DNA from: an uncultured Bacteroidaceae bacterium
Lineage (GTDB): Bacteria; CAIWAD01
DNA: 64,000 bases
Direction: 5' to 3'
Assembly (NCBI GenBank): GCA_964568855.1
Contig: CAZMSD010000011.1
Location: 13,512 to 77,511 of the forward strand
This document shows, in pieces, positions 9,958 to 64,000 of the stretch. Position 1 is the first letter of the stretch, and each line of letters starts with the position of its first letter. The translations under genes and the position numbers were made by a program. The notes under the pieces were generated by a model. That model ran no database searches and was not told the origin of the DNA. It saw only the letters and a program-made list of their open reading frames with translations.

Positions 9958-9964
9958 CTGCTAA

Positions 9965-10038
9965 CGGTCCGGACGAGACTCGAACTCGCAACTTCCAGCG
10001 TGACAGGCTGGCGCTCTAACCAATTGAACTACCGGACC
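9965..10038 (-). tRNA. tRNA-Asp(GTC)
   Basis: Acceptor GGTCCGG/CCGGACC, anticodon arm CCAGC-CTGTCAC-GCTGG, T-loop TTCGAGT; CCA not encoded. Confidence 0.96.
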
Positions 10039-10057
10039 GGTTTTCGCGGATCGCGAG

Positions 10058-10132
10058 TGGGCGATACCGGATTCGAACCAGTGACCCCCTGCTTGTAAGG
10101 CAGGTGCTCTGAACCAGCTGAGCTAATCGCCC
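10058..10132 (-). tRNA. tRNA-Val(TAC)
   Basis: Acceptor GGGCGAT/ATCGCCC, anticodon arm CCTGC-CTTACAA-GCAGG, GGTTCGAATCC T-arm; full CCA not encoded. Confidence 0.96.
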
Positions 10133-12549: not shown

Positions 12550-13920
12550 ATGTATCACAGCCGAGTCTTTCAAACACTGGCGCTTTCTCTTTTTCCCGTT
12601 GCTTGCGCTGCCGGCCTTCTTCAGGTCCCCGAACACTACGAATTGATCCAACAGGCCATTGATGCGGCTGTTCAAAGTGATACCGTGCTGGTCGCTCCCG
12701 GCACCTACGATGAGCAGCTCCAGATAAGCGGAGACGCGATAACGCTGGCTTCACACTTCTTGCTCACACAGGACTCGATCTATCAGTCCGGCACGATCAT
12801 CGATGCAGGAGGGGCGCCGGCCGCAATCTACCTGGCGCCTTCCGCTTCTGCCGGAACCCTGATAACGGGCTTCACGGTCCGTAACGGAGACGACGGAATA
12901 CAACCGCATGCAAGTCTGGATATCAGCCACAATCGCATCCTGGACTGTACGGATGGGATAGACTATGAATCAGGCAGCGGCGGGAACTGCAGCTACAACC
13001 TCATTCAAGGCAACCTGGATGACGCGATAGATCTTGACGGTGCAGTCGACGTCGTGATTGAGAATAACCTGCTGATCGGCAACCAGGACGATGGAATTGA
13101 AATCCGTCTGCACGACTACTCGGGACCGCTGCTGAACGTTGTCATCCAGAGCAACATCATCGAGGGCAATGGTGAGGACGGAATTCAGCTCATCAACTAT
13201 TCAACCCTGACCGATCGAACATTCATAATACTGAATAATCTGATCCACAACAACGCAATGGCGGGTATTGGTTGCATGGGAGATGGAGAAACTATCGAGA
13301 ATTACGAGGGCGAGGCTGTTCCTGAACCCGTTCTTCTGGCCAACAACACCATTTCCGGTCACAATCACGGTATCTCAGGCGGCGGGAATTTCAGGTTCAT
13401 CAACAACATTGTGATTGACTGTGATTCGATTGCGGCGAAAAACTGCACCGGAGATTCGGAGATCTCCTTCTGTGACTTCTTCAACAATGGTCTTGATTTC
13501 GCGAACTGCAATGTGGATTCACAGACAGTGATCCTGTTGGATCCGCTGTTAGCTTCCGAGGGCGATTTCCACCTCCAGGCGACAAGCCCGTGCATCGAAG
13601 CGGGAACCAGCCAAGGAAGTCCGGAAAATGACATCGAAGGTAATCCCAGGGGCGACCCCCCTGATATCGGGGCTTACGAGTACGTTGAAGCAGGCGCCTT
13701 GCCCCCTCCCCAGGTAAGTATCGGCATGGCGGCCGAGGGAGTTCTCTTGAGCTGGTTGGAAGTCCAGGGGGCTGAATCCTACATAGTCTATCGTTCCACC
13801 AGTCCCTACCAATTCGATTGGGGAACTCCTTTCGCGATCATCGCGGAAAGCGAATATCTTGACACTGATTCGTGGAGCGGAGAGCGGTATTTCTATGTGG
13901 TGACAGCGGCGGAAGAATAG
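12550..13920 (+). CDS. secreted right-handed parallel beta-helix (pectin lyase-fold) protein with C-terminal Fn3-like domain
   Basis: Signal peptide; IQQAIDAA..DTVLVAPGTY, repeated NLIxGNxxDGI beta-helix units, DFHLQATSPCIEAG...DIGAYE motif; visibly more AT-rich than flanks. Confidence 0.85.
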   Translation: MYHSRVFQTLALSLFPVACAAGLLQVPEHYELIQQAIDAAVQSDTVLVAPGTYDEQLQISGDAITLASHFLLTQDSIYQSGTIIDAGGAPAAIYLAPSASAGTLITGFTVRNGDDGIQPHASLDISHNRILDCTDGIDYESGSGGNCSYNLIQGNLDDAIDLDGAVDVVIENNLLIGNQDDGIEIRLHDYSGPLLNVVIQSNIIEGNGEDGIQLINYSTLTDRTFIILNNLIHNNAMAGIGCMGDGETIENYEGEAVPEPVLLANNTISGHNHGISGGGNFRFINNIVIDCDSIAAKNCTGDSEISFCDFFNNGLDFANCNVDSQTVILLDPLLASEGDFHLQATSPCIEAGTSQGSPENDIEGNPRGDPPDIGAYEYVEAGALPPPQVSIGMAAEGVLLSWLEVQGAESYIVYRSTSPYQFDWGTPFAIIAESEYLDTDSWSGERYFYVVTAAEE

Positions 13921-13955
13921 GGAGCTGCCGGCTTTCTTCCCGGAGAGCATTTGAA

Positions 13956-14007
13956 CTCTCGGCGCTTTGAATGTAGAGGAAACGGGCGAGCGGGGAGATT
14001 AGTGCGG
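13956..14007 (+). repeat. 52-bp direct repeat, copy 2
   Basis: CTCTCGGCGCTTTGAATGTAGAGGAAACGGGCGAGCGGGGAGATTAGTGCGG. Confidence 0.95.
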
Positions 14008-14025
14008 GGCAGAGTCGGCTATGGT

Positions 14026-14802
14026 CTACTCCTCAAAATCGAACAAACCCCAAGCCCTGCCCAAGTCCTTCGCCGAGGGCGTCAGCACCATGCCCTTGCT
14101 CACCTTGATGCGCAGGTTCTGGGCCCTGGCCCTGCGCACGGCATCCTCGGAAACCAGGCGGCCCACGGGCAGGTAGCGCTCCTCGGGAGGTCGGCCGTCA
14201 CCGGCGGTCAGCACCCGCGCGCGGCCCCCCGGCAGCGCCCGCAGCGCGTCGGCCTCGTCCTCGTCGAGATGCAATTCCAGGTCGTATTCGTCGCTGACGC
14301 AGACGTCCACCTCGGCCAGGATGCCGTCCCGCACGGCCTCGCGCAGCTCCAGGCGGCGATCGCTGCGTACAAGGCAGGCCACGCGGTCCTGGTGCAGCAG
14401 GCCCAGGCGGCGCGCGTTTTCAGGGCTCAGGTGCAGGGTGCGCAGGGGGCAGATGACGCCGGCTTCGAGCTCAAGGTGTCCCCGGGGGCCGATCAGGGTC
14501 AGGCCCGGCGATCCCTCAAAATCGCCGATGGCCCGCACCGGAGGATCCAAACCCAGCGCCCGGGCCTTACTGCGCGGGCAGACCAGTCCGCTGAAGCCCC
14601 CCAGCGGTCCCACCACGGGGACATCGTCCAGGCGCTCCAGGGCGGTGGCCGCGCTGAGGCTCTGACGGGCCAGGAAGCCGCCCTGCAGGCCCAGTGCCTC
14701 CTCGAATTCCAGGTGGCGGCCTTCCCCGAACAGCAGCACGAAGTGCGGCCGGGTCAGGTAGACCCGGGGCCCGATCACGCGTATGCGGGGCTCGATCGCC
14801 AT
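14026..14802 (-). CDS. PduL-like phosphotransacylase homolog with degenerate metal site and extra C-terminal domain
   Basis: LFGEG, LGLDPPVRAIGDFEGSPGLTLIGPRGHLELEAGVI, LHLSPENA, LELHLDEDEADA align to PduL; HxH motifs altered. Confidence 0.8.
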   Translation of the reverse strand: MAIEPRIRVIGPRVYLTRPHFVLLFGEGRHLEFEEALGLQGGFLARQSLSAATALERLDDVPVVGPLGGFSGLVCPRSKARALGLDPPVRAIGDFEGSPGLTLIGPRGHLELEAGVICPLRTLHLSPENARRLGLLHQDRVACLVRSDRRLELREAVRDGILAEVDVCVSDEYDLELHLDEDEADALRALPGGRARVLTAGDGRPPEERYLPVGRLVSEDAVRRARAQNLRIKVSKGMVLTPSAKDLGRAWGLFDFEE

Positions 14803-14810
14803 TGCAGAGC

Positions 14811-16340
14811 TCAGGTCCTGAACTCTTTGACGATGCGCTCGATGTCGTCTTCGCTGAGACCGCTCTTGCCGTAGCTGCGTGCGCGTCCTTCCTGTGGCGC
14901 TTCATCCCCCGCGCCCGCCGGTTGATCCTCCGCCCGGTAGCGGTACTGCTCGTCGTATCGCCAGCGCTCCTTGGCGGAATCGTCGCCGGCGTGCAGCGGG
15001 TTCACTTCGTAGGCCACCCTGCGGATGTTGACCAGGTGCATCGGTCCCACGTTGTCGGTGGTGATACTGCCGCCCCAGGTACCGGGTCCCAAGGTCAGCG
15101 AGGGCGCCAGGCCGGTGGTGTAGCCGATGGCGCCGTGGGTGGCGGAGCTGTTGACGATGATGCGGAAGGCCGGCTTGTCTAGGCCGAACTCGAGCACCAT
15201 CTCCGGATCCTGGGAATGGATGGCGAAGGTGTGGCCGATGCCGCCGTAGTTGAGAATCTCGATCGACAGCAGGCAGCCCTGCTTCCAGCCGTCCACCACG
15301 TAGAAGCCGAGCACGGGGCTGAGCTTTTCGCAGGAAAGGGGATCATCACGGCCCACCTTGTCCAGCATGACCATGATGACCCTTACGCCGGGCTTGACCT
15401 TGAATCCCGCCAGGTCGGCGATGTGCTGGGGCGAGCGCCCTACGATCTCCGGGTTGATCTGGCCCCGCTTGTCCACCATCACCGCCTGCAACTGGGCTTT
15501 CTCTTCCGCGGAAGCGAAATAGCATCCGTTGCGGCGCAGTTCCTCCATCAGTTTGCCGGCGATGGGACGGTCCGCCACCACGCTCTGCTCGGAAGCGCAG
15601 ACCGTGCCCCAGTCGAAGCTCTTGCCGGCCGTTATGTCGCTGGCCGCCTTGGGCACGTCCGCCGAACGGTCCACGTAGGCGGGCACGTTGCCGGGGCCCA
15701 CGCCGTAGGCGGGCTTGCCGGCGGAGTAGGCCGCCCGCACCATGGCGCTGCCGCCGGTGGCGAGGATCACCGAGGTTTCCTTGTGCCGCATCAGCTCCTG
15801 CGTACCCTCGAGACTGGGCAGGCTCATGCACTGCACCAGATGCCGCGGGGCGCCCACCGAGCATGCCGCGTCGTGCAGCAGCCGCGTGGTTTCGATGATG
15901 CAGGTCTTCGCGCTGGGATGGGGACTCATGATCACCGCGTTACGCGACTTGAGCGAGATGATGGCCTTGAAAATGGCCGTCGATGTGGGATTGGTGCAGG
16001 GAATCAGCGCCGCCACGATGCCCATGGGCACGGCGATTTCCAGCACGCGGCGCTCCTCGTCGTGGTGAATCACGCCGCAGGTCTTCTGCCCCTTGATGTG
16101 GTCCACCAGGTTCTTCGAGGCGAAGACGTTCTTCGTCGTCTTGTCCTCGACGCGGCCGAAGCCGGTCTCCTCGTGAGCCATGCGGGCCAGCCGCTTGGCG
16201 TTGTTCAGGGCCGCCGAAGCCATGGCCTGGACGACGCGGTCCGTCTGGTCCTGTGTGAATTCCTTGAACTGGTCCGCGGCGCCGCGAGCCCGGTCGAGCA
16301 TGTCGCGGACTTCCTGGATCGAAGCCAGATCCCTGTCCAT
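14811..16340 (-). CDS. CoA-acylating aldehyde dehydrogenase (EutE/PduP-like) with C-terminal encapsulation-peptide-like helix
   Basis: PCTNPTST, LATGGSAMV, GVGPGNVP, catalytic CASEQ, EKLSPVL; terminal LSEDDIERIVKEFRT. Confidence 0.92.
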   Translation of the reverse strand: MDRDLASIQEVRDMLDRARGAADQFKEFTQDQTDRVVQAMASAALNNAKRLARMAHEETGFGRVEDKTTKNVFASKNLVDHIKGQKTCGVIHHDEERRVLEIAVPMGIVAALIPCTNPTSTAIFKAIISLKSRNAVIMSPHPSAKTCIIETTRLLHDAACSVGAPRHLVQCMSLPSLEGTQELMRHKETSVILATGGSAMVRAAYSAGKPAYGVGPGNVPAYVDRSADVPKAASDITAGKSFDWGTVCASEQSVVADRPIAGKLMEELRRNGCYFASAEEKAQLQAVMVDKRGQINPEIVGRSPQHIADLAGFKVKPGVRVIMVMLDKVGRDDPLSCEKLSPVLGFYVVDGWKQGCLLSIEILNYGGIGHTFAIHSQDPEMVLEFGLDKPAFRIIVNSSATHGAIGYTTGLAPSLTLGPGTWGGSITTDNVGPMHLVNIRRVAYEVNPLHAGDDSAKERWRYDEQYRYRAEDQPAGAGDEAPQEGRARSYGKSGLSEDDIERIVKEFRT

Positions 16341-16501
16341 GGAGGCCTCACGCGTTGGTGCAGGATGGTATCTTTTGAAAGTAAGAGTTGCGGGAGTGAG
16401 TCGCGAGGAAGCTCAAGCGGCGTGAGACACGGCCGGCCGCTGGCCCGGTCCCGCTCGATGGATTGGGATTGGCGGAAGGCCGCACTACCAGGGAACCAGC
16501 C

Positions 16502-17248
16502 ATGGAGCCAGAACGACCCATCGCCCTGATCACGGGCGGCGCCCGGCGGGTGGGCGCGGCCGTCATGGAGCACCTCGCCGCCAAGGGCTGGGACCTGGTG
16601 CTGCACTACAATCGCTCGATCCGGGAGGCGGAAGAGCTGGCCTTCGAGTTCGAGGAAACCAACGATTGTCACGTGTACCTGGAACGCGCGGACCTCGTCG
16701 ACCCGCTTCAGCGGCGGGAGCTCTGCGCCCGGATCAGTGACCAGCTCGAAAGCGCCGGCCGGCCGCTGGACCTGCTGGTGAACAATGCCTCCATCTTTCC
16801 TCGCTGCCGCCTGGAGGAAATGGACGATCCACTGGTGGACCAGCTCTTCGCCGTGCATCTGAAGGCGCCGCTCTTCATCGCCCGCGACCTCGCACCCTGC
16901 CTGCGCGCGGCCCCGGATGGAGTGGTGATCAACATGCTCGACGCGGGCGCCGGCCGGTACTGGCCCGCATACCTGCCCTACTGCCTCTCCAAGCAGGCCC
17001 TTCGCGAGGCCACCCTGGGGCTGGCCAAGGTGCTGGCCCCCGGAATCCGTGTCTGCGGCATCGCTCCCGGCTTCGTGCTGCCCCCGGAGGAGGCTCCGGA
17101 AGTGTACATGCGAGCGCAAGGCCGTAAACTGCTCAAGCGCGACGGTAGCCCGGAGGACGTGCTGCGCGCCCTGGACTACATCGTGGAAGCCAGGTTCGTC
17201 ACCGGCGTGATCCTCGAAGCGGATGGTGGAAAAGGGCTGGCACGGTAA
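16502..17248 (+). CDS. SDR oxidoreductase, pteridine reductase/FolM-like
   Basis: TGGARRVG, LHYNRS, LVNNAS, YCLSK (YxxxK), GIAPG; start taken at MEPERP. Confidence 0.88.
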   Translation: MEPERPIALITGGARRVGAAVMEHLAAKGWDLVLHYNRSIREAEELAFEFEETNDCHVYLERADLVDPLQRRELCARISDQLESAGRPLDLLVNNASIFPRCRLEEMDDPLVDQLFAVHLKAPLFIARDLAPCLRAAPDGVVINMLDAGAGRYWPAYLPYCLSKQALREATLGLAKVLAPGIRVCGIAPGFVLPPEEAPEVYMRAQGRKLLKRDGSPEDVLRALDYIVEARFVTGVILEADGGKGLAR

Positions 17249-17321
17249 AATGCAGATCCGCCTGCCGCGCAGGGCGGGATTCCATCGCCGTCGAAAAAGA
17301 GCCGGCGATATTACTTGCTGC

Positions 17322-48502: not shown

Positions 48503-50959
<2,457 letters not shown>

Positions 50960-50960
50960 T

Positions 50961-53603
50961 ATGATCGGTGAGGGACAGCAGATCGTCAACGTGAACATCG
51001 AAGAGGAGATGAAGAACTCCTACATGGATTACTCCATGTCGGTGATCGTTCAGCGCGCCTTGCCCGATGTTCGCGACGGCCTCAAGCCGGTGCACCGCCG
51101 GATCCTGTTCGGCATGAACGAGCTGGGCTTCGCCTCGGGCAAGCCCTTCAAGAAGTGCGCCCGCATCGTGGGCGAGGTGATGGGCAAGTATCACCCCCAC
51201 GGCGACAACGCCATCTACGATACGCTGGTGCGCATGGTGCAGGATTTCAGCCTGCGCTATCCCATGGTGGACGGCCAGGGCAATTTCGGCTCGGTGGACG
51301 GCGACGGCGCGGCGGCCATGCGCTACACCGAGGCGCGCCTGGACCGGGTGGCCGAGGAAGTGCTCGAGGATATCGACAAGAGCACCGTGGACTTCGTCCC
51401 CAACTACGACGGCTCCCTCAACGAGCCCACCGTGCTGCCCTCCAAGCTGCCCAACCTGCTGATTAACGGCTCGGCGGGCATTGCCGTGGGCATGGCCACC
51501 AACTTCCCGCCGCACAACCTGAGCGAGGCCGTAGACGGCATCAAGGCCCTGCTGGACGATCCGAACCTGGGCGTGGACGATCTCTGCCGCCACGTCAAGG
51601 GCCCTGATTTCCCGACAGGAGCCTTCATCTACGGGGTTCAGGGCATCCGGGACGCCTACCGCACGGGCCGGGGCCGGGTGGTGATCCGCGCCAGGGCCAG
51701 CATCGAGACCGGACGCGCGGGCAAGGACAGCATCGTGGTCACCGAGATTCCCTACCAGGTCAACAAGACGCGCCTGATCGAGAAGATCGTCAGCCTGGTG
51801 CGGGACAAGAAGATCACGGGGATCTCGGACATCCGCGACGAGAGCGACCGCGACGGCATGCGCCTGGTGATCGAGCTCAAGCGCGACGCCGTGGGCAAGG
51901 TGGTGCTCAACCAGCTCTTCAAGCACAGCCAGATGCAGGTGACCTTCGGCGTGATCATGCTGGCGCTGGTCAAGGGCCAGCCCCGCGTGCTCAACCTGAA
52001 GCAGGTGATGGAGCAGTACATCCATCACCGGCTGGAAGTGGTGGTGCGCCGCACGCGCTACGAGCTGGACAAGGCCGAGCGCCGGGCGCACATCCTGGAA
52101 GGCCTCAGGATCGCGCTGGACAACATCGACGAGGTGGTGGCGCTGATCAAGGCCAGCCGCACGCCGGACGAGGCCCGCGCGGGCCTGATGGAGCGATTCG
52201 AGCTGACGGAGATCCAGGCCAGGGCCATCCTGGACATGCGCCTGCAGCGGCTGACCGGGCTGGAGCGGGACAAGCTGGAACAGGAGCTGAAGGGCCTGCG
52301 CGAGCTGATCTTCGAGCTGAAGGGCGTGCTGGCCGACGAAGGCAAGCAGCGGGAGATCATCAAGGAGGAACTGGAGGACCTGCGCGGGCGCTACGGCGAT
52401 TCACGCCGCACGGAGATCATTCCCGACGAGGAAGAATTCACCGTCGAGGACATGATCGCCGAGGAAAACGTGGTGGTCACCATTTCCAACGACGGCTTCA
52501 TCAAGCGCTATCCCGTATCGGGCTTCCGCAAGCAGAACCGCGGCGGGCGCGGGATCACCGGGGCTTCCACCCGTGAAGCGGACCACATCGAGCACCTCTA
52601 CATCGCCTCGACGCACAACTACATGCTCTTCTTCACGGAGGACGGGCACTGCTACTGGCTCAAGGTGCACGAGGTGCCGCAGGCCGGGCGGGCCTCCAAG
52701 GGGCGGGCCATCGTCAACCTGCTCGAGAAACCCAGCGACCGCAAGATCGCGGCGGTGATCAACGTCAAGAACTTCGATCCCGAGTATCACATCATCATGG
52801 CCACCGAGAAGGGCGTGGTCAAGAAGACCAGCCTGGAGGCCTTCAGCAGGCCGCGGCGGGCGGGCCTCAACGCCATCGAGATCCGCGAGGGCGACCGCCT
52901 GATGGACTGCAAACTCACCGACGGCAGCCACGAGATCCTGCTGGGCACCGACGAGGGCAAGGCGATCCGATTCCACGAGCGCGAGGCGCGGCCCATGGGA
53001 CGCGTGGCGGCCGGCGTGAAAGGCATCACGCTGCCCGGGGGGGTGCACGTGGTGGGCCTGGTGGCCACGGCCAAGCCGGAGGCCCAGATCCTGGTGGTTA
53101 CCGAGAGCGGCATGGGCAAGCGCAGCCGCCTGCAGGAATACCGCGTGACACGTCGCGGGGGCAAGGGCATCATGACCGTCAAGGTCACGGAGCGCACCGG
53201 CCGCATGCTGACCATGATGGAAGTCACCGACGAGCACGACCTGATGATCATCACCCAGCGCGGTGTGATGATCCGCCAGCCGGTGGGCCAGATCCGCGTG
53301 ATCGGCAGGGCGACCCAGGGCGTGCGCCTGATCCGCCTGGACGAAGGGGACCGCATCGGCAGCGTGGACAAGGTGATCGCCGATTCCAGCAAGGAGAAGC
53401 TGGGGATGGCCGCGGGCGCAGCCGCGGGCGCAGCCAACGGCGGCCCCAACGGCACTCCCGGCGGTGAAAACGCCGGCGCCGATGAGGGCGGCAACGGCGG
53501 CGGTGAGGGCGCGAGCGAACTTGACGCGCTGACGGGCTCTCCCGGCCAGGAATCGGCCGGCGATCTCGAGGAGCCGCCGGATAACGGCTCAGGAACGGAG
53601 TGA
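50961..53603 (+). CDS. gyrA: DNA gyrase subunit A
   Basis: YHPHGD, AAMRYTE, GyrA-box QNRGGRG, acidic/Gly-rich tail. Confidence 0.99.
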
Positions 53604-53847: not shown

Positions 53848-55002
53848 GTGAATCCGCTTGATTTTACAGGAATTACGAGAGGACAACTCGTTAAGAGCGC
53901 CCAAGGTTTTTGGGCGTTTGTCCCATTCCCCCTTCCACCAGAACTCGATTTCGAACTGGCTTTGGTGAACTCTCTGTCTGAGGCGGATAGAGCACTAAGT
54001 GAACTTGCGGGCTTAGCGCGAAATCTGCCGAACCCCCACTTACTCATCGGACCTTTTGCACGACGCGAGGCAGTATTGTCCAGTAGAATCGAGGGCACGC
54101 AAGCTTCGCTTTCGGATCTTTTATTCTTTGAAGCGGCCGACTTGCGCGCGCGAGAAGTTCCGGATGTTCGCGAGGTTGCTAACTACGTTCGTGCGCTGGA
54201 ATATGGTCTAGAAAGGTTTAAAGAGCTTCCCTTGAGTCTCCGCCTGATACGGGAGATTCACGAAATCCTGATGCAGGGAGTACGAGGCGAAAGCCAGACA
54301 CCAGGTGAGTTTCGCAAGTCGCAAAACTGGATTGGTCCACCCGGATGTACGCTGATAGACGCCTCCTATGTGCCGCCGCCAGTGGAGCAAATGACAGTGG
54401 CTCTTGATGCATTTGAGAAGTACCTCCATGCTCCGACTCAGATTCCGCCGCTGATCCGAATGGCATTGATCCATTACCAGTTTGAGGCTATCCATCCTTT
54501 CCTTGATGGAAATGGACGCGTGGGACGATTGCTGATTTCACTCCTACTCTGTGCAAATGAACTCCTTCCGCAACCGCTGCTATACTTGAGCGCCTACTTC
54601 GAAAGACACCGCGAATCGTATTACAGGCACTTACTGAATGTCAGTCAAGTCGGCCGCTGGAATCAGTGGATAGTGTTCTTCCTGGAGGCCGTGTCCACAC
54701 AGGCTAAGGACGCCGTTAGCCGTTCGGGCAGGCTGTTGGATCTTTGGAACAACTACCGGAACCGAATGCAGGAAGCGCGATCTTCAGCGTTGCTCTTACA
54801 AGTGATAGACGAGCTCTTCAGGAGTCCTGTTCTTACGAACCAATTGGTATCCGAACGGCTGAGTGTCACACCGCGGTCGACGCAGCTGCACATAGAAAGA
54901 CTCATCGCCGAAGGGATCCTGCACGAAGCCACCGGCAGGAAGAGAAATCGAGTCTACGTCGCGAACGAAGTTCTGTCAGCAATCGAGGATTCCGAACCGT
55001 AG
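53848..55002 (+). CDS. Fic family protein (class II, intramolecular inhibitory motif, C-terminal HTH)
   Basis: HPFLDGNGRVGR catalytic motif; SSRIEG (S/T)xxxE(G/N); more AT-rich codon use than gyrA. Confidence 0.93.
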   Translation: MNPLDFTGITRGQLVKSAQGFWAFVPFPLPPELDFELALVNSLSEADRALSELAGLARNLPNPHLLIGPFARREAVLSSRIEGTQASLSDLLFFEAADLRAREVPDVREVANYVRALEYGLERFKELPLSLRLIREIHEILMQGVRGESQTPGEFRKSQNWIGPPGCTLIDASYVPPPVEQMTVALDAFEKYLHAPTQIPPLIRMALIHYQFEAIHPFLDGNGRVGRLLISLLLCANELLPQPLLYLSAYFERHRESYYRHLLNVSQVGRWNQWIVFFLEAVSTQAKDAVSRSGRLLDLWNNYRNRMQEARSSALLLQVIDELFRSPVLTNQLVSERLSVTPRSTQLHIERLIAEGILHEATGRKRNRVYVANEVLSAIEDSEP

Positions 55003-56708: not shown

Positions 56709-57706
56709 CTACACCTTGATCCCCGTCGAATAAGTGCTGATTCTCAATGAGTGTCCATCGATTTCTAGAACCGCGCAACCAACATCCGCGTCGGGCAGAT
56801 TGAGATTGTACATTTCGCTGTACCAGCGCGGCACGGGTTCCCGCCTGCCGCCGGGAATGGATTCCTTCGGCAAGGTTTCAAGCCGCTCCATGAATGTCGT
56901 GACTTCTGGCCGGCGGTCGGTGTCGACTTCCTCCAGCAATCCCCTTACTTCGGCCAGCAGGTTGGAGATCCGGTGCTCAGACGCCTCAGGCTCCATCACG
57001 GAAGAATCATTCCAGGCCATGCAGAAGGGCTGGCCCATGTGCCCGCTCAGGATCAGGTTTGCCCGAGTGTGGATGCCGATCAGGCTGATCAGTGCTTCCT
57101 TCCCTGGACTCACGTGACTGACCAGGATCCTGACCTCATCCTTCCCGCGGCGTTCTGTAACGAGGTCCATCAACTCCATGTACTGGTAGAGAGTGCTCCA
57201 GACCCTTCCACCCCCTCCCGCTACCGGTTGATGAAACAATTTGGATCCCGGCAGTAGATTGCCGCCCAGGCCGAAGACATGCAGGCGGCCGATGTGATAC
57301 TCCGCCTTCTCATGCAGCAGGCGGAGGTTGGGAACCGAAAGACGGCCATCATGCAGCTCCGTGACCACGTGGTGATCCTCGTGGTTGCCCCAGACCGCGT
57401 ACACGGGAACTTCGAAAGTCAAATTTCCGAGATGAACTCCGGAAACTGCCCCAGCAGCCGCTCGCTCGCGATCACCTCGATCACCTCTTCGCGGCTGGTT
57501 TTCAGCAGTCGACGACCCTCTTTCCTGGGCAGGTGCGAATGAAGTACTCGCAGGCCCAGCTCTCGATTGCTGAGACGATCAGGGCTCTCCAGGTCGTAGA
57601 AACCGAAATCGCCAGCGTGGATCACGGCCTCCGCGCCCGTTTCGTTCGCCAGACGGTTGATCTGTTCCAGCTCTCCGTGCGTATCGGAAATACACAGGAC
57701 TCTCAT
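56709..57706 (-). pseudogene. calcineurin-like metallophosphoesterase split by a single frameshift near 57420 (pseudogene or sequence error)
   Basis: 5' ORF has DxH (SDTHG) and GDxG (HAGDFG); 3' ORF has GNHE, SH and SGH motifs; adding one base at TCGGAAATTTGA joins them. Confidence 0.8.
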
Positions 57707-57913
57707 TGTTTCTTCCCTATTTCACGAGCGCCTGCCACTTTAGGCGCTGCGCCGCTTCCGTGGGCCATCGATACTCAAGCATGCAGCTCAGAATTACCGT
57801 TTCGCAACAGCCGTGCCAAACGCCGGTGCTACTGAATGCAACAGGCATGCAGCTTGCTCAAGCGGAATAGTGGCAACCAGCTTTTCATAAACCGTCCAGT
57901 AAGGATTTCCAGC

Positions 57914-59215
57914 ATGGCCGACCATCGATACGTGACCACCACTCACATCGGCGATGTGCCCGTGTCCATCATCGCCTCGCCGGAGCTGTGGATAGAGGGA
58001 ACAGCGGTCGATCAGTTGCACAATGCGGCGCGTATCGAGGGCGTCGTCCGCGTGGTGGGCCTGCCCGATCTTCAGCCGGGTCGAGGGTATCCGGTGGGCT
58101 CGGTAATCCTTGCCTGCGAGCGCCTGATCCCGATCCTGATCGACAAGGACATCGGCTGCGGCATGCTCTTCTGCAGCCTGGGCCGCCTGGCGTTGAATCG
58201 CGGAAAGCTGCGAAAGCGACTGGAAGCGCAGTTCTTCACAAGGCGCAAGGCCTTCCTTGCACCGGACGAACTGCTGGAACTGCTCTCTAGGCCGCGCCGG
58301 GGTCTACCCTGGCTGGGCGAGTTGTTCGAGCAAACCGACGAGTTACTGGAAGACGTGTATCGCGCAGTATATGGGCTGCGAGACGTGGATCCCGAATCCG
58401 CCGGGACCTTGCTGGACGACGAACTCCTGCAGTCGGCGGCCAGGGACTGGGGCAGCCTGGGTTCCGGCAACCACTTCGCGGAATTCCAGCAGGTGGCCGA
58501 GGTGGCGGATTCCGAACTGTCCAATCTCTACCAACTCAAACGCGGTGATACAACTCTCCTGGTCCACACCGGCTCCCGGGGCTTCGGCTATACATTAGCC
58601 TGGCGTTTTCTGGCCAGGGCACCCGAGACGGGGAAGTCGATCCCGCTCGACTCGGAGGCCGCAAGGTGTTACCTGGCAGCGATGCAGCTCGCCCTGAACT
58701 ACGCGGCGCTGAACCGGCTTTTCATCCAGCTGCGGCTGCTCGAGTACTTCAAGTGGAAGGAGCTGCGCATCCTCCTGGACAAGCCCCACAATTTCCTGGA
58801 GATCATCACCAATGACGGAGACGAAGGCCGGCTTGTGTTACATCGCAAGGGCGCGGCACCGGCCCATCCGGCGGTGAACGACGATCCGCTGGTCATTCCC
58901 GGCGCGCTGGGCAGGTCCTCCTGGTTCGCGGTAGCAGGACCGGGCGCGGATCGGTTCCTGAACAGCGTGAATCATGGAGTTGGCCGCAGGTGGAATCGCG
59001 CTCACGCCGCGGCCAAGCTGCATAGGAAAGCGATGGACAAGGGGCGCCGATCACTGACCGGCGGCGTGGAATTCATCTGCCCTGATGGGGATACGCTTTT
59101 CGTCGAAGGCGGGGATGCGTACAAGGACATCGATAGCGTCATGGAAAGCGTCGTCGGTGCCGGTCTTGCGCGGCCGGTGGCCCGCCTGGAACCGCAGATC
59201 ACGATCAAGGAGTGA
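57914..59215 (+). CDS. rtcB: RtcB family RNA 3'-phosphate/5'-OH ligase, RtcB2 (PrfH-coupled-type) clade
   Basis: AAGGA SD then MADHRY; WIEGTAVDQL...GLPDLQPGRGYPVG typical of RtcB2; DIGCG, GSGNH, HTGSRG, HN, HRKGA, NHGVGR all present. Confidence 0.9.
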   Translation: MADHRYVTTTHIGDVPVSIIASPELWIEGTAVDQLHNAARIEGVVRVVGLPDLQPGRGYPVGSVILACERLIPILIDKDIGCGMLFCSLGRLALNRGKLRKRLEAQFFTRRKAFLAPDELLELLSRPRRGLPWLGELFEQTDELLEDVYRAVYGLRDVDPESAGTLLDDELLQSAARDWGSLGSGNHFAEFQQVAEVADSELSNLYQLKRGDTTLLVHTGSRGFGYTLAWRFLARAPETGKSIPLDSEAARCYLAAMQLALNYAALNRLFIQLRLLEYFKWKELRILLDKPHNFLEIITNDGDEGRLVLHRKGAAPAHPAVNDDPLVIPGALGRSSWFAVAGPGADRFLNSVNHGVGRRWNRAHAAAKLHRKAMDKGRRSLTGGVEFICPDGDTLFVEGGDAYKDIDSVMESVVGAGLARPVARLEPQITIKE

Positions 59216-59543
59216 CCCGGAGGAGTCGACCTTTTGTCAAGTCGCTTGAAAGAAAGTCACACAGCACCGAGCGGCTGATGGAGTGCGGACCAGGTAGAGA
59301 CGCGTATGCACCTTCCCTGAGGCCCGCGCGGTTTCCCGCAACCATTCCCAGAGACTCATTCGCGCTGGCACATGAATTGCCTCACAAGATGGGTGAGGGT
59401 CGCCGTCGACAACGAGGCTCGAAGAATGGTAAACTGAGAGCCTGTCCCGGCGTTTCGGCGTCCAGGGACAGATTCCAGCGGCGGCGCCGTTTCCACACCC
59501 CATCAAGTGGGCGTCGCCGATACCAACTCGTGGAACACAGCTC

Positions 59544-62500
59544 ATGGATTCATTGATCTTTGGCATTGTGGTCTTCGCGGCGACCCTCTCATTCGTTCGA
59601 ATCATCGGCAAGATTGGTGAATGGAATCCCGGAGGTGCAGGACAAGGCATACCCGGCGCGAAGAAGACCGACGGCACGTCCAGTATCACGGATATCCTGT
59701 TTCCGCTTCCGGAGCGCCTGGTGGAGCTCTTCAAGGCCAGCGCGCATCCCCAGGATCTGCTGGGCAGCAGGGACTTCACCGCCCTGTCGGACGGACTCAC
59801 CCATCCCGGTATTACGAGCTCCGAATTGTGCAACTACATCAGCGGAGACAATCCCCTGGTGTCATGCATCGTGCTGGAAGCGCTGGGGCGGCGAAAGACC
59901 GAAGACAGCTCGTCCGCTATCATCGATGACCTCGACGAAATCGGCGCCTGGCAGGTCTTCTTCGCCCTGCGGGCCATCCATGCCGTAGCGCTGGAGCCCG
60001 CCATCTGGCGCGTCCTGTTCGCCGCCCGCGAGGAATGGCCCAGTCACACCATCACCAAGCAGAACGTGGCCGAATTCATCGAGGAACGCGTCGCGGCGGG
60101 CGAATCCACCGATCCGGCCCACTGGAAGAACTGGCTCAAACAGCCCCAGGCGGCTATCATCATAGAGCTGCTGAAGGAGCAACAGGGATCCGCCACCCAG
60201 AAGCTGCGCCAGATGCTCACCGGCTGGCTCGAGACGTATACCGACACGAGTTGGTTCCAGGACATCGGCAGACTCTGGGATTCCGATCACCCACCCGAGG
60301 AAGTGATGGTAAACGCCCCTATGCGGATCAGCCTGGAGCTCCTCGAGCAGGCCCTTGACCAGACTCCCCCCAAGTCCCTGGCGGTGGTGGGCGACGCGGG
60401 CACCGGCAAGTCGGCCCTGCTGAGAAGGTTGGCGGAACGGCGGCTGGCCGCGGGGGGCATTGTGTTTCAGGCCGGAGCGACGGACCTGCTGGCCGGCCAG
60501 CGCTACCTGGGCGACCTCGAAAGACGGCTCAAAGAGTTGATCGAACAACTGACCAAGAACAGCAATGTGCTCTGGCTGGTGCCCAACCTGAACGAACTGC
60601 TCAGCGCGGGGCGAGCGAGGAACGATCCGCGCAGCATCCTGGACCGTATTCTACCGCACATCGAGAGCGGGGCCATCCACCTGGTGGGCGAAACCCAGAC
60701 GGAGGCCTGGGAGCATCTGTTGCAGGAAATGCCGCGTCTAAAACGCTTGTTCGAGGTCGTACGCGTCGAGGAGCTGGACAAGGAAGGCACTCTGGAACTG
60801 GCCGGCTGGTGGGCCGACCGTCGTCGCCTGCCGGACGAGTCCACCCTGCTGGAGTCGGACATCCTGGAGGAGGCCTACCAGCTCGCCGAGCAGTATCTCA
60901 ACGATCGCGCCGCGCCGGGCAACCTGATGCATCTGCTCGAGCTCGCCTGCATGCAACAGGGGACGGACCCGCAGCTGCGAAAGCCCATCGAGCGGGAAGA
61001 CCTGCTGCTCACCGTGTCGAAGATGACCGGGCTGCCGGCCAGCATTCTCGACGATCGCCAGGCCCTGGACCTGGAGGACCTGCGTGAGACATTTCACCGG
61101 CGCGTGCTGGGACAGCCCGAGGCAGTGGATTGCCTGGTGGAGCGCGTAGCCCTGATCAAGTCCGGTCTCACGGATCCCACGCGCCCCGCGGGGGTGTTCC
61201 TGTTCGCCGGTCCCACCGGAACCGGCAAGACCGAGATCGCCAAGGTCCTGGCCGAGTTCCTCTTCGGCTCCCCGGACCGCATGATTCGCCTGGACATGAG
61301 CGAGTTCCAGACGCCCGAGGACCTGAATCGTCTGGTCGGGGAGCGTGGTGATACATCGGAGAGCTCCGTCCTGCTGAGCCGTATCCGCAAGCAGCCTTTC
61401 TCGGTGGTGCTGCTCGATGAATTCGAGAAGGCGCACCCGCAGGTCTGGGACCTGTTCCTGCAGGTTTTCGACTACGGCCGCCTGAGCGACCGCCTGGGCA
61501 ACACGGCCGACTTCCGCCACAGCATCATCATCATGACCTCCAACCTCGGCTCGCGTATTCGCCTGGGGTCCAGCATCGGCTTCCGTTCGGATGGGCGGCT
61601 CTTTTCCTCCGCGGTCGTCGAAAAGACCATCGGTGAAACATTCAGCCGGGAGTTCATCAACCGCCTTGACCGGGTAGTGATTTTCCGCCCCCTCAGCCGA
61701 TCCGTCATGCGTTCGATCCTGCGCAAGGAACTGGCGGACGTGCTGCAGCGGCGCGGGCTGCGCCACCGCGAGTGGGCGCTGGAGTGGGAGGAGACGGCGC
61801 TCGAATTCCTTTTGGAACAGGGCTTCACGGGCGACCTGGGGGCTCGACCACTGAAACGCGCAGTGGAGCGATACCTGTTATCCCCTCTGGCCATGACGAT
61901 CGTCGACCACCAGTTTCCGGAGGGCGATCAGTTTCTCTACGTACGAAGGGAAGAAAACGGATTGCGCGTGGAGTTCATCGATCCCGACGCGGATGTATCG
62001 GCGTTTCCAGAGGTGACTGCCGACCTCAGAGCGGAAGCAGCCGACGAACAGGTGCTGAGTCTGCGTTCGCTGGTACTCGAGGCTCGCGGCACACGGCGGG
62101 AAATGGACTTCCTTGTGACGCGCTGGGAGAAACTGATGGAAGAAGTAGAGGGCGCTACCTGGCAGGAACGCAAGGAGGAGGGACTGGCCAGGATGGCCGA
62201 ACCCGAATTCTGGAAGCGGCCCGAGCGCTTTCGCTGGCTGGGAAACGTGGAGTACATGGACCGGATTGAATCGGGCGCGAACTCGGCGGGTGCACTGCTG
62301 GAGCGATTGCGGGGCCAACATCCCGGGCAGCGGGACCAGTTCCCGGCGAACATGTTACAGCGCCTGGCGCAGCGACTCTACCTGCTGGATATGGCGCAAA
62401 CCGGCCTGCTGGATGGACAACCGCACGATGCGATCCTGCAGCTGCGGGCGCAGGGAATCATGCCCCGGACCGGTGAGCCGGAGTGGGAGTTCTACCAGCG

Positions 62501-62921
62501 ACTGATCGGGATGTATGCCGGTTGGGGCAAGAAGAGACGCATGCGCGGCGACATCCTCCTGCGGTCATCAGAAGATGATCACGGAGAATGCATCCTGGTC
62601 TTTTCAGGACTGGGCGCTTACTCCATCCTGGCTCCCGAGACCGGTCTGCACGTGTTCGAGGTACCCAGGCGGGGGGACCGGAGCTTCACGCGTTACAACG
62701 TCCGGGTGCGGGTTGCACCAGTACCCGATGAACATCCGGGCGACCGCCAGGAGGCTCTTGAGGCGGCACGCCGGATCCTGGCAGGGGCCGGAGAAAGCGC
62801 ATCGAGGATTGTGCGCCACTACCGCGAGAATCCTTCACCGCTGGTCCGGGACCACGTGCGGGATTGGCGCAGCGGGCGCCTGGACCGCGTGCTCGAAGGG
62901 GATTTCGACCTGGTCTGCTGA
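59544..62921 (+). CDS. ClpA-type double AAA+ ATPase fused to a GGQ-less RF2-like module; N-terminal hydrophobic segment
   Basis: NBD1 GDAGTGKS with degenerate Walker B; NBD2 [23 protein letters not shown], IGF loop, GARPLKR; C-terminal RF2-like motifs. Confidence 0.9.
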   Translation: [1125 protein letters not shown]

Positions 62922-63014: not shown

Positions 63015-64000
63015 ATGAAACGGAATCACAATCCTGGCTTGACCATCTGGATTACTGTGTTGCTCTGCACCTCGGCCGTACGAGCCCTCACGCTTGAAGA
63101 GACCGAGCAGATACTCGCCGAAGACCGCTACGCTGAAGCGGCGAAAAAATACGAGGCACTGGTTTCGGAACAGACCCTGGGCGCGGCGGCTCGCGCCCAG
63201 GCCTGGCGCGGCAAGGCCCTGGCGCACCTGGCGCGAATGGAAGACGTGGAAGCCATGCGCTGCCTGGCGCAGGCCGTGCTCGCGCAGCCTGATTACGCGG
63301 GAAACATCGGCCTGCTCAACAGGGTCGAGTGGCTGGTGCTGAACTGCGGACCCTCGCTGGAATGGCCCGCGCTGATGGCGGACCTGCGAGAAGCCGCAAA
63401 GGACTTCCCGGAGCTGATCTGCGAGCTGGATTACCTGCAGATCATCCTCGACAAGTGCAGGGGCGAGTTCGCCCGCGCCGATTCCCTGTCCGCCGTCTTC
63501 TCCCACGTCGACCGCTACCTGGTGGCGGGCCCCTTCCCCAACGTCGCCGGTTCCGGCTTCACGGCGTCGTACGAGCCTGAATGGGAAATCGACACCACGG
63601 CCACCTATCGCGGGAACCGGGGACAGAGCTTCGGCTGGATGAAGGTGAACACCCAGAGCGCCAGCGACGTTGTTCACGACGGACGGGTGGACCTGGACCT
63701 TCTGCTGGACGACGAGGCCTACGCGGCGGTCTATGCCGTGACACACGTACGGAGCGAAGGGGAGAGACCGGCGGTGATCCACGTTTCCGGGGGCGGGTCC
63801 TTCCGGCTGTGGTGCAACGGGGAACTCGCGCTCAGCGAACCCGAGTACCGGGTCGCCGGCGACCCGCTCTACCTGGCGCCGGTGAGGCTCCGCGCGGGCT
63901 GGAACCGCCTGTTGCTGAAGGTCTGCGCGGAAAGGGAGAAGCTCTTCTTCAACCTGCGAATCAGCGACACTACGGGCGCTCCCCTGGCGCTGCAGGTCGA
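63015..64000 (+). CDS. secreted protein with TPR-like helices and beta-sandwich domain, truncated by window edge
   Basis: MKRNHNPGLTIWITVLLC signal; YLVAGPFPN...AVYAVTHV...LWCNG...LRAGWNRLLLKV; open to the end of the window. Confidence 0.75.
   Translation, partial: MKRNHNPGLTIWITVLLCTSAVRALTLEETEQILAEDRYAEAAKKYEALVSEQTLGAAARAQAWRGKALAHLARMEDVEAMRCLAQAVLAQPDYAGNIGLLNRVEWLVLNCGPSLEWPALMADLREAAKDFPELICELDYLQIILDKCRGEFARADSLSAVFSHVDRYLVAGPFPNVAGSGFTASYEPEWEIDTTATYRGNRGQSFGWMKVNTQSASDVVHDGRVDLDLLLDDEAYAAVYAVTHVRSEGERPAVIHVSGGGSFRLWCNGELALSEPEYRVAGDPLYLAPVRLRAGWNRLLLKVCAEREKLFFNLRISDTTGAPLALQV

Follow-up and report, generated by a model that had tools for sequence, protein, structure and literature searches.

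The window analysed here is a stretch of 64,000 nucleotides from contig CAZMSD010000011.1 of an uncultured Bacteroidaceae bacterium, and it is ordinary chromosome with a GC content of 55–68%. Near its end lies the gene under study (59544..62921, + strand), a single open reading frame (ORF) for 1125 residues whose boundaries match those of the ORF list exactly. All features of this gene described below are on the + strand. The encoded protein is a new combination of two known kinds of machine, a Clp ATPase and a release factor (RF). By homology, its tail is a paralogue of RF2 and its body a paralogue of ClpA/ClpC, and the membership tests given below place it in neither family. From sequence and models, it is predicted to be a membrane-anchored, ClpA/ClpC-derived AAA+ ATPase with two rings, each protomer of which tethers a codon-blind copy of RF2 that lacks the GGQ domain. 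Gene calls on contigs of four separate metagenome samples (JGI 3300009128, 3300009314, and 3300013118; ENA ERZ23498668) gave the identical protein, which excludes an assembly error. The gene immediately upstream encodes an RtcB2-like RNA ligase (57836..59215, + strand).

The fusion protein belongs to a widespread family. Clustered at 50% identity, the matches of an exhaustive profile search amount to 385 clusters below an E of 1e-30 and to 812 below 1e-10. Among the matches listed, those of full length mostly have about 1050–1290 residues, and the RF module is C-terminal in every one. A relative occurs in 170 genomes of GTDB species representatives. The best 80 of these 170, which make up our genome-derived set, are all metagenome-assembled genomes (MAGs) and span more than ten phyla. 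Their hosts include Acidobacteriota (many of them Pyrinomonadaceae), Calditrichaceae, Desulfobacterota/Thermodesulfobacteriota, Gemmatimonadota, Planctomycetota, Actinomycetota, Bacteroidota, Eisenbacteria, Methylomirabilota, Verrucomicrobiia, and a few Proteobacteria. Together with 80 more loci from metagenomes, this gives 160 other loci of the family, and the closest relatives share at most about 46–48% identity with the protein from the window. Residue conservation was counted over 102 sequences, namely the window protein and 101 other full-length members (1072–1435 residues, median 1152). Given the 385 clusters, the more than ten phyla, and the 101 further full-length members, the family is, as far as such alignments tell, under family-wide purifying selection. 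Two members from other assemblies (P0168 and P0170) carry low-complexity, Ser/Arg-rich sequence after the Walker A motif of the second ATPase domain, which suggests frameshifts in the source or decayed copies. In databases, the homologues bear generic names ("AAA family ATPase", "PCRF domain-containing protein", or "ClpC"), and no description of the architecture was found in the openly accessible full-text literature or in the main papers on PrfH and on RF evolution, subscription-only papers lying outside the search. That the members retrieved here all come from MAGs of uncultured organisms or from metagenome assemblies may account for this.

The N-terminus of the fusion protein forms a hydrophobic helix (residues 2–23; 59547..59612), a probable signal-anchor, which is helical in the AlphaFold2 model and has a mean Kyte-Doolittle hydropathy of 2.35 in a 17-residue window. 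A hydrophobic helix follows the initiator methionine in 82 of the 102 members and is mostly succeeded by arginine or lysine; some members from Actinomycetota lack it. The helix probably serves as an N-out/C-in anchor, with most of the chain on the cytoplasmic side. Residues ~44–262 (59673..60329), in the place where Clp_N is usual, constitute an all-alpha, HEAT/ARM-like N-domain. The AlphaFold2 model of this domain, built separately from that of the RF module, is wholly helical, with a predicted local distance difference test (pLDDT) score of 80–90 over residues 50–230. Pfam has no Clp_N match in the fusion protein, and HEAT_2 matches weakly in two of the nine members searched. A Foldseek search with the N-domain returned generic HEAT/ARM alpha-solenoids, none of them significant.

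The ATPase part resembles ClpA and ClpC more than it does ClpB. Pfam assigns AAA_16 to residues 264–353, AAA_2 to residues 547–710 (3e-40), and ClpB_D2-small to residues 717–796. ClpA aligns in a single stretch, residues 271–808 of the fusion protein to ClpA 202–743. The alignment to ClpB is split into two stretches that jump ClpB residues ~403–513, the M-domain; the fusion therefore has no coiled coil and is ClpA/ClpC-like rather than ClpB-like. With the NCBIfam ClpA model (TIGR02639), whose cutoff is 993, the score is 319, and the scores of the curated ClpA, ClpB, and ClpV models are all far under their cutoffs.

The first nucleotide-binding domain (NBD1, or D1; 60351..60983), delimited by alignment to ClpB and ClpA, contains the Walker A motif GDAGTGKS (60390–60413) and the pore-loop aromatic in AGQRYLG (60492–60512). 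At the Walker B position, LWLVPNLNE (60570–60596) is degenerate, with the aspartate changed to proline and the glutamate to asparagine. Across the family, the Walker A lysine is kept in 96/102 members and is arginine in the other six, the Walker B aspartate is proline in 96/102, the glutamate position holds D, N, or G, and the pore-loop position is Y in 67 members, F in 27, and W in three. NBD2 (D2; 61182..61673), delimited by the AAA_2 match, has the Walker A motif GPTGTGKT (61209–61232) and the Walker B motif VVLLDEFEK (61404–61436). Both are invariant in 102/102 members, and the sensor-1 TSN and the GARPLKR motif are also present. In the place where alignment to ClpB (GAPPGYVGYEEGG) leads one to expect a GYVG pore loop, there is a variable loop (61329–61373). 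Judged by these motifs, the NBD1 ring keeps Walker A, has lost Walker B, and should be unable to hydrolyse ATP, so that NBD2 would be the only hydrolysis-competent ring.

The tripeptide IGF (residues 678–680; 61575..61583) forms a loop of the ClpP-docking type after sensor-1 of NBD2, in register with the ClpA IGL of the ClpB-ClpA chimera 5ofo. The first position of the tripeptide is L in 49 of the 102 members, I in 42, and V in seven, the glycine is present in 102/102, and the third position is F in 96 and L in six. The loop is recognised at the level of the motif, from which coupling to ClpP may be supposed. The D2-small domain (61692..61991; Pfam ClpB_D2-small 3.6e-15) ends in a hairpin, PEGDQFLxV...VEFIDPDA, and the columns from P792 to A816 are invariant across the family. 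A flexible tether (61992..62087; AlphaFold2 pLDDT below 50) connects the ATPase to the RF module. It is rich in Ala, Pro, Glu, and Asp (20, 12, 12, and 7% across the family) and measures 20–48 residues (median 29).

The original prediction, which was made from the sequence of the window, had described the Clp part as lacking the ClpB coiled coil and as having a degenerate NBD1 Walker B (VPNLNE), the ClpP-docking IGF loop, and a hydrophobic, possibly membrane-bound N-terminus, and on each of these points the alignments and the model bear it out. It also called NBD2 intact; the Walker motifs of NBD2 are invariant, and its GYVG pore loop is lost in 102/102 members. Because the hydrolysing ring, NBD2, lacks GYVG and NBD1, which has the aromatic, would be unable to hydrolyse ATP, processive extraction or degradation of nascent chains through canonical ClpAP threading is doubtful. 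The family thus poses a puzzle for AAA+ mechanics, in that the hydrolysing ring lacks a pore loop and the ring with a pore loop lacks hydrolysis, and the ClpP loop is invariant.

The RF module can be divided into domains 1, 2, and 4 of a class-I release factor, with a short linker instead of domain 3. The last 288 residues of the fusion protein match RF2 in the PDB (9fy1_8; E = 6e-6) in two stretches, query residues 20–215 to RF2 13–214 (domains 1 and 2) and 252–286 to RF2 321–355 (domain 4). The match jumps from RF2 residue 214 to 321, which shows that the GGQ domain was excised. A profile of nine family members finds RF2 in the PDB with E = 7e-15, together with RF1, mtRF1, and mtRF1a; PrfH is not among the matches of this profile. 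The AlphaFold2 model of the module has a pLDDT of 84 and a predicted TM-score of 0.81. The top 50 PDB matches of this model in Foldseek are all class-I release factors (RF1, RF2, and mtRF1), with a best E of 5e-11 and a probability of 1.00, and the best include RF2 on the 70S ribosome. The TM-scores of these matches are merely 0.3–0.43, as expected with one domain absent and the others hinged. Pfam PCRF is present in 9/9 family members (best E = 1.8e-10) and the GGQ-bearing Pfam RF-1 in 0/9. In the window protein, PCRF scores 19.5 bits over the full length and 23 bits for the module alone, against a gathering threshold of 24. The module scores 25.8 bits with NCBIfam prfB (cutoff 370) and 17 bits with prfA (cutoff 423). 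Chance resemblance is excluded because 102 full-length homologues repeat both the GGQ deletion and the motifs.

Domain 1 (62088..62414) is a helical bundle that aligns in HMMER to RF2 8–110, and its helices occupy model residues 45–150, which correspond to protein residues 851–956. It carries the conserved W873 and the motif FW..P.RF..LG, and these are kept family-wide, as is the core of domain 2 (DAF, MY..W, SG.GAY, and E.G.H). Domain 2 (62415..62726), the part matched by Pfam PCRF, contains DAILQLRA and MYxxW; E1032, G1034, H1036, and E1039 are each conserved in 102/102 members, P1041 in 75/102, and R1050 is essentially invariant. The stop-codon elements of this domain are degenerate. Among the 102 members, the loop equivalent to SPF/PxT (residues 1042–1047) is variable with insertions and deletions, the position equivalent to the stacking histidine is variable, and so is the region of the alpha-5 tip (residues 970–982; GGTEA in RF2, the GxxE motif). 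With all three elements unconserved, the module is, on these alignments, codon-blind.

In place of the GGQ domain there is a linker of ~26 residues (62727..62804), defined by the gap in the HMMER alignment and by the AlphaFold2 model. It forms one helix (model residues 262–275), possibly a vestige of alpha-7. The spacing from P1061 to R1091 is 20–58 residues in the family (median 30), compared with about 92 residues in E. coli RF2. A GGQ tripeptide occurs in just one of the 102 members and is taken as chance. With the GGQ domain cleanly excised, the module is predicted to be incapable of hydrolysing peptidyl-tRNA. The final block (62805..62918) comprises domain 4 and the switch loop and aligns to RF2 321–355 and RF1 282–342. 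With the consensus IVRRYRExPSPLVRDxVRGWRTGRLDRVLxGDFDL, it is the best-conserved stretch outside the nucleotide motifs of NBD2; R1091, Y1093, D1103, V1116, G1119, and D1122 are each present in 102/102 members, and P1099, L1100, and R1102 each in 101/102. In canonical release factors, structures of RF-70S complexes place this block at the decoding centre, and we know of no role for the fold of RF domains 1, 2, and 4 apart from binding to the A site. The near-invariance of this block is one reason to infer ribosome binding by the module. The original prediction had read the last ~250 residues as RF2-like, with a linker of ~25 residues for the GGQ domain and no SPF tripeptide, and had proposed to look for PCRF without RF-1. 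All the motif pairs that it quoted appear in the HMMER alignments, and the remaining points agree with the profile, Pfam, and loop data above.

The ligase gene upstream (Pfam RtcB 5e-64; its JGI gene call starts at 57914) encodes a protein 34% identical end to end to E. coli RtcB2 (204 bits) and 26% identical to RtcB1 (74 bits). The NCBIfam model release_rtcB, which describes PrfH-coupled RtcB, scores 246 bits for it, against a cutoff of 272 and scores of 144 and 617 for E. coli RtcB1 and RtcB2. Its nearest relatives are five proteins of 431–451 residues with ~50% identity, and the next 100-plus matches are PrfH-coupled RtcB2 proteins. Relative to E. coli RtcB2, the ligase has an insertion of ~75 residues (residues ~112–190), and it belongs to a small subclade found in varied RNA-repair cassettes. 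In one locus of this subclade (L173), an RtcB with 51% identity is followed after 7 nucleotides (nt) by a gene for a 213-residue, GGQ-bearing, PrfH-like protein sharing 31% identity with PrfH of E. coli. In two others (L171 and L172), the RtcB gene is accompanied by CTP_transf_like and RBFA-like genes and a second RtcB gene, and L171 has in addition SpoU, ADP-ribosylglycohydrolase, and metallophosphoesterase genes. In a further one (L168), it is accompanied by pP_pnuc_1, DUF6933, and RlaP. This arrangement suggests that the fusion gene fills the slot that PrfH holds in relatives of the ligase, inside an apparent RNA-repair island. The RtcB2-like neighbour, which the original prediction had not noted, is an independent pointer to damaged ribosomes in this organism.

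The spacer between rtcB and the fusion gene (59216..59543) has no terminator-like site. One promoter-like site (59406–59435) is no more than would be found by chance, and the + strand of the spacer has no Rfam match. Neither the spacer nor the rest of the window contains a remnant of prfH, and no second RF-like module was found near the relatives of the window RtcB. An Arg-rich ORF for 114 residues with a GTG start (59212–59556, + strand) spans the spacer and shares nucleotides with the stop codon of rtcB. JGI did not call this ORF, which is probably an artefact of a GC-rich frame. Divergently upstream of rtcB, a single calcineurin-like metallophosphoesterase domain is divided between two ORFs that overlap and lie in different frames (56709–57422 and 57419–57706, both on the − strand). 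The 95-residue ORF has motifs I–II, and the 237-residue ORF begins just before GNHE. The split is not a read error, because contigs from different samples show it too; a pseudogene, a frameshift, and a true two-part enzyme are all conceivable. Past the end of the window, on the minus strand of the same contig (L081, 17372–19358), are genes for an ADP-ribosylglycohydrolase and for a methylase of the SpoU type, which share 27% and 31% identity with their counterparts in the RtcB island of L171. Their presence may point to a set of genes for the repair of modified or cleaved RNA.

The explanation that we prefer, tentatively and at a little short of an even chance, is that the fusion protein is a ribosome-directed AAA+ remodeller that uses its RF module as an A-site probe. 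On ribosomes left with an empty A site by stalling or damage, the RF module would dock at the A site and decoding centre in the manner of RF2. There it would neither read the codon nor hydrolyse peptidyl-tRNA. Docking would bring the membrane-held, hexameric ATPase onto that ribosome, and ATP hydrolysis in D2 would then remodel or dismantle the complex, by splitting the subunits or by evicting bound tRNA, mRNA, or factors. Released protein could be cleared by ClpP, recruited through the conserved IGF loops. In E. coli, a damaged 70S ribosome must be dismantled before RtcB2 can religate the 16S rRNA, and PrfH achieves this through peptide release (PMC9304027). The fusion might supply the equivalent step in the present organism, by mechanical means, so that RtcB reaches the 16S rRNA. 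Remodelling or splitting appears favoured over threading because NBD2 has no gripping loop, NBD1 has no hydrolysis, and the RF modules lie at the ClpP-proximal face of the ring. The same three features weaken the original proposal of a ClpP-coupled extraction or degradation of nascent chains, and the earlier interpretation as a whole is partly supported.

Several observations weigh against a ribosome-directed remodeller. The RF module hangs off the ClpP-proximal face of the ring rather than the face through which substrates enter. The feeding of ClpP and the target on which the motor would pull are left unexplained, and the IGF loop still points to ClpP. No member has the NBD2 pore loop G[YFW][VIL]G (0/102), and any aromatic residue in the loop is found in just 12/102. 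The two arginines that flank the codon-reading strand of RF2 are replaced by valine and glutamate (GLHVxExP vs GVHRLVRxSPF). A gap of 328 nt parts rtcB from the fusion gene, and tblastn with the window RtcB found no RtcB near the fusion gene in any of the 160 other loci, within flanks of up to 10 kb that extend at least 1.5 kb upstream in 88 loci and at least 1.5 kb downstream in 119. Adjacency to RtcB is thereby ruled out as a trait of the family. No other neighbour is conserved either, as all-against-all clustering of the flanking ORFs put no more than 13 of 81 loci into any one cluster, and synteny within Pyrinomonadaceae explains all of these.

The strongest competitor, which we consider unlikely yet worth weighing, is a membrane-protein quality-control ATPase, FtsH-like and partnered with ClpP, that acts through its HEAT-like N-domain while the RF shell stays off the ribosome. 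The shell would have been co-opted for regulation, autoinhibition, or oligomerisation, or would offer a binding site to a partner of release factors such as PrmC or RF3. The N-terminal membrane helix and the IGF loop are conserved as such a machine would have them, and the HEAT-like N-domain lies on the substrate-entry side. The loss of the codon-reading elements, the replacement of the two decoding-strand arginines, and the lack of a conserved ribosome-related neighbour are in line with it as well. However, domain 1 and the switch-loop/domain-4 block are constrained very strongly, which an exapted scaffold would not need, and PrmC recognises the GGQ domain, which the fusion lacks. The missing D2 pore loop also argues against a classical degradation machine, and the position of the gene behind an RtcB2-like ligase in the window counts against this explanation. 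A further role, rather improbable in our view, is that of a hibernation or sequestration factor, in which the dead RF module plugs idle A sites, the membrane helix tethers the ribosomes, and the ATPase releases them upon regrowth. Balon is reportedly an aeRF1-like factor that plugs the A site of idle ribosomes in this way. A codon-blind, non-catalytic A-site ligand with a membrane anchor is what hibernation would call for, and a motor without a threading loop suits release or remodelling more than degradation. There is also a precedent in bacteria for inactive RF-like proteins linked to hibernation factors (PMC6514570). Nevertheless, hibernation genes such as those for HPF and RMF are not among conserved neighbours, the invariant ClpP-type loop would be left without explanation, and the RtcB context in the window indicates damage repair over dormancy.

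It is very unlikely that the protein is a defence or decoy sensor, whose RF shell would imitate RF2 and so lure effectors of phages or competitors directed against release factors or the A site, thereby switching on the ATPase, with or without ClpP. The patchy spread over more than ten phyla is suggestive of horizontal transfer, a SoFic gene lies 4.5 kb upstream, and RtcB2-PrfH is itself a counter-toxin system (PMC9304027). Against these stand a gene that is free-standing and without an effector domain, other loci that do not lie within defence islands, and PADLOC matches that are just generic AAA hits to NBD2. On the last ground, membership of a defence system as defined by PADLOC is ruled out. 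The chance is practically nil that the fusion is an artefact, be it an assembly chimera, a clp gene running on into a pseudogene of prfB, or a spurious match of motifs. What speaks for an artefact is the full-length PCRF score of 19.5 bits, under the threshold of 24. This is outweighed by the identical protein in four metagenome samples, the 101 other full-length members with the same domain order and the same clean excision of GGQ, the profile E of 7e-15, and the Foldseek probability of 1.00 for the 50 listed matches; the conservation data have already refuted this reading.

If the ribosome-directed remodeller is correct, its nearest counterparts in function would, by analogy, be Dom34/Pelota-ABCE1 or Vms1-Cdc48, with PrfH-RtcB2 as the counterpart in this locus. 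The eukaryotic and archaeal rescue systems likewise combine an RF-like A-site probe that does not read codons with a dismantling ATPase (PMC6514570), and Dom34 too lacks the catalytic glutamine. In contrast to the fusion, their probes have the aeRF1-type fold, which is unrelated to that of bacterial release factors, their ATPases are other ones, and probe and ATPase are separate partners rather than one membrane-anchored chain. With PrfH-RtcB2 (PMC9304027, PMC9223846, PMC12829566), the fusion shares, in this organism, the position of a non-stop-reading RF derivative directly downstream of an RtcB2-type ligase and the presumed target, a ribosome damaged in its decoding centre. The two differ in that PrfH lacks domain 1 and has GGQ, the opposite of the fusion module, and in that RtcB stands beside the fusion in this organism only. 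Descent from PrfH was rejected, as E. coli PrfH, compared with the family profile in hhalign, gave a probability of 0.3 and the RF module has no match to TIGR03072, which scores E. coli PrfH at 329 bits. RF2 itself, including its codon-independent use with ArfA, is homologous to the module in the domain 1 bundle, the PCRF sandwich of domain 2, and the domain-4/switch-loop block. The module differs from it by the absence of domain 3 with GGQ, by the unconserved SPF, alpha-5 tip, and stacking histidine, and by its covalent bond to an ATPase.

The ATPase shares with ClpA/ClpC-ClpP its two AAA+ rings, the lack of an M-domain, the D2-small domain, and the [LIV]-G-F loop. It differs from ClpA/ClpC by lacking Clp_N, a live D1 Walker B, and the D2 GYVG, and by adding the membrane helix and the RF module. 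ClpB/Hsp104, unlike the fusion, carries the coiled-coil M-domain in D1. FtsH is likewise a membrane-anchored AAA+ protein with its ring beneath the membrane, but the fusion has one membrane helix, two Clp-type AAA rings, and no fused metalloprotease.

The family could represent an unrecognised bacterial pathway of rescue or quality control that works without hydrolysis of peptidyl-tRNA, although we regard this broader proposal as possible rather than probable. A dead RF2 probe and a membrane AAA+ hexamer would dismantle the ribosome mechanically, passing the 30S subunit to RtcB-type repair in some lineages and possibly protein to ClpP. To our knowledge, the known bacterial rescue routes (tmRNA, ArfA-RF2, ArfB, PrfH, and BrfA) all finish in GGQ-catalysed peptide release, and RqcH acts once the subunits are already split. 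If true, the proposal would make the fusion a bacterial analogue, in a single chain, of Dom34-ABCE1 or Vms1-Cdc48. Among bacteria, it would also be the first candidate for dealing with stalled or damaged ribosomes in an energy-driven, hydrolysis-independent manner, a new principle of rescue. The RF module is small and well defined, and the central claim is thus open to direct assays of ribosome binding and to cryo-EM.

The remaining genes around the fusion are of varied kinds. The gene that starts 94 nt past it (63015–64000, + strand, continuing on L081 at 13472–17275) encodes a protein of 1267 residues with a signal-like N-terminus and weak matches to TPR, DUF3857, and the transglutaminase core; it is not conserved beside other family members. 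The SoFic gene (53848–55002, + strand) encodes a Fic_N/Fic/helix-turn-helix protein that matches the PADLOC model of this anti-phage system with E = 5e-124. Two large ORFs further upstream (48518–50959 and 50961–53603, + strand) correspond to genes that carry the calls gyrB and gyrA on contig L081. Genes for tRNA-Asp(GTC) and tRNA-Val(TAC) lie at 9964–10132 on the − strand.

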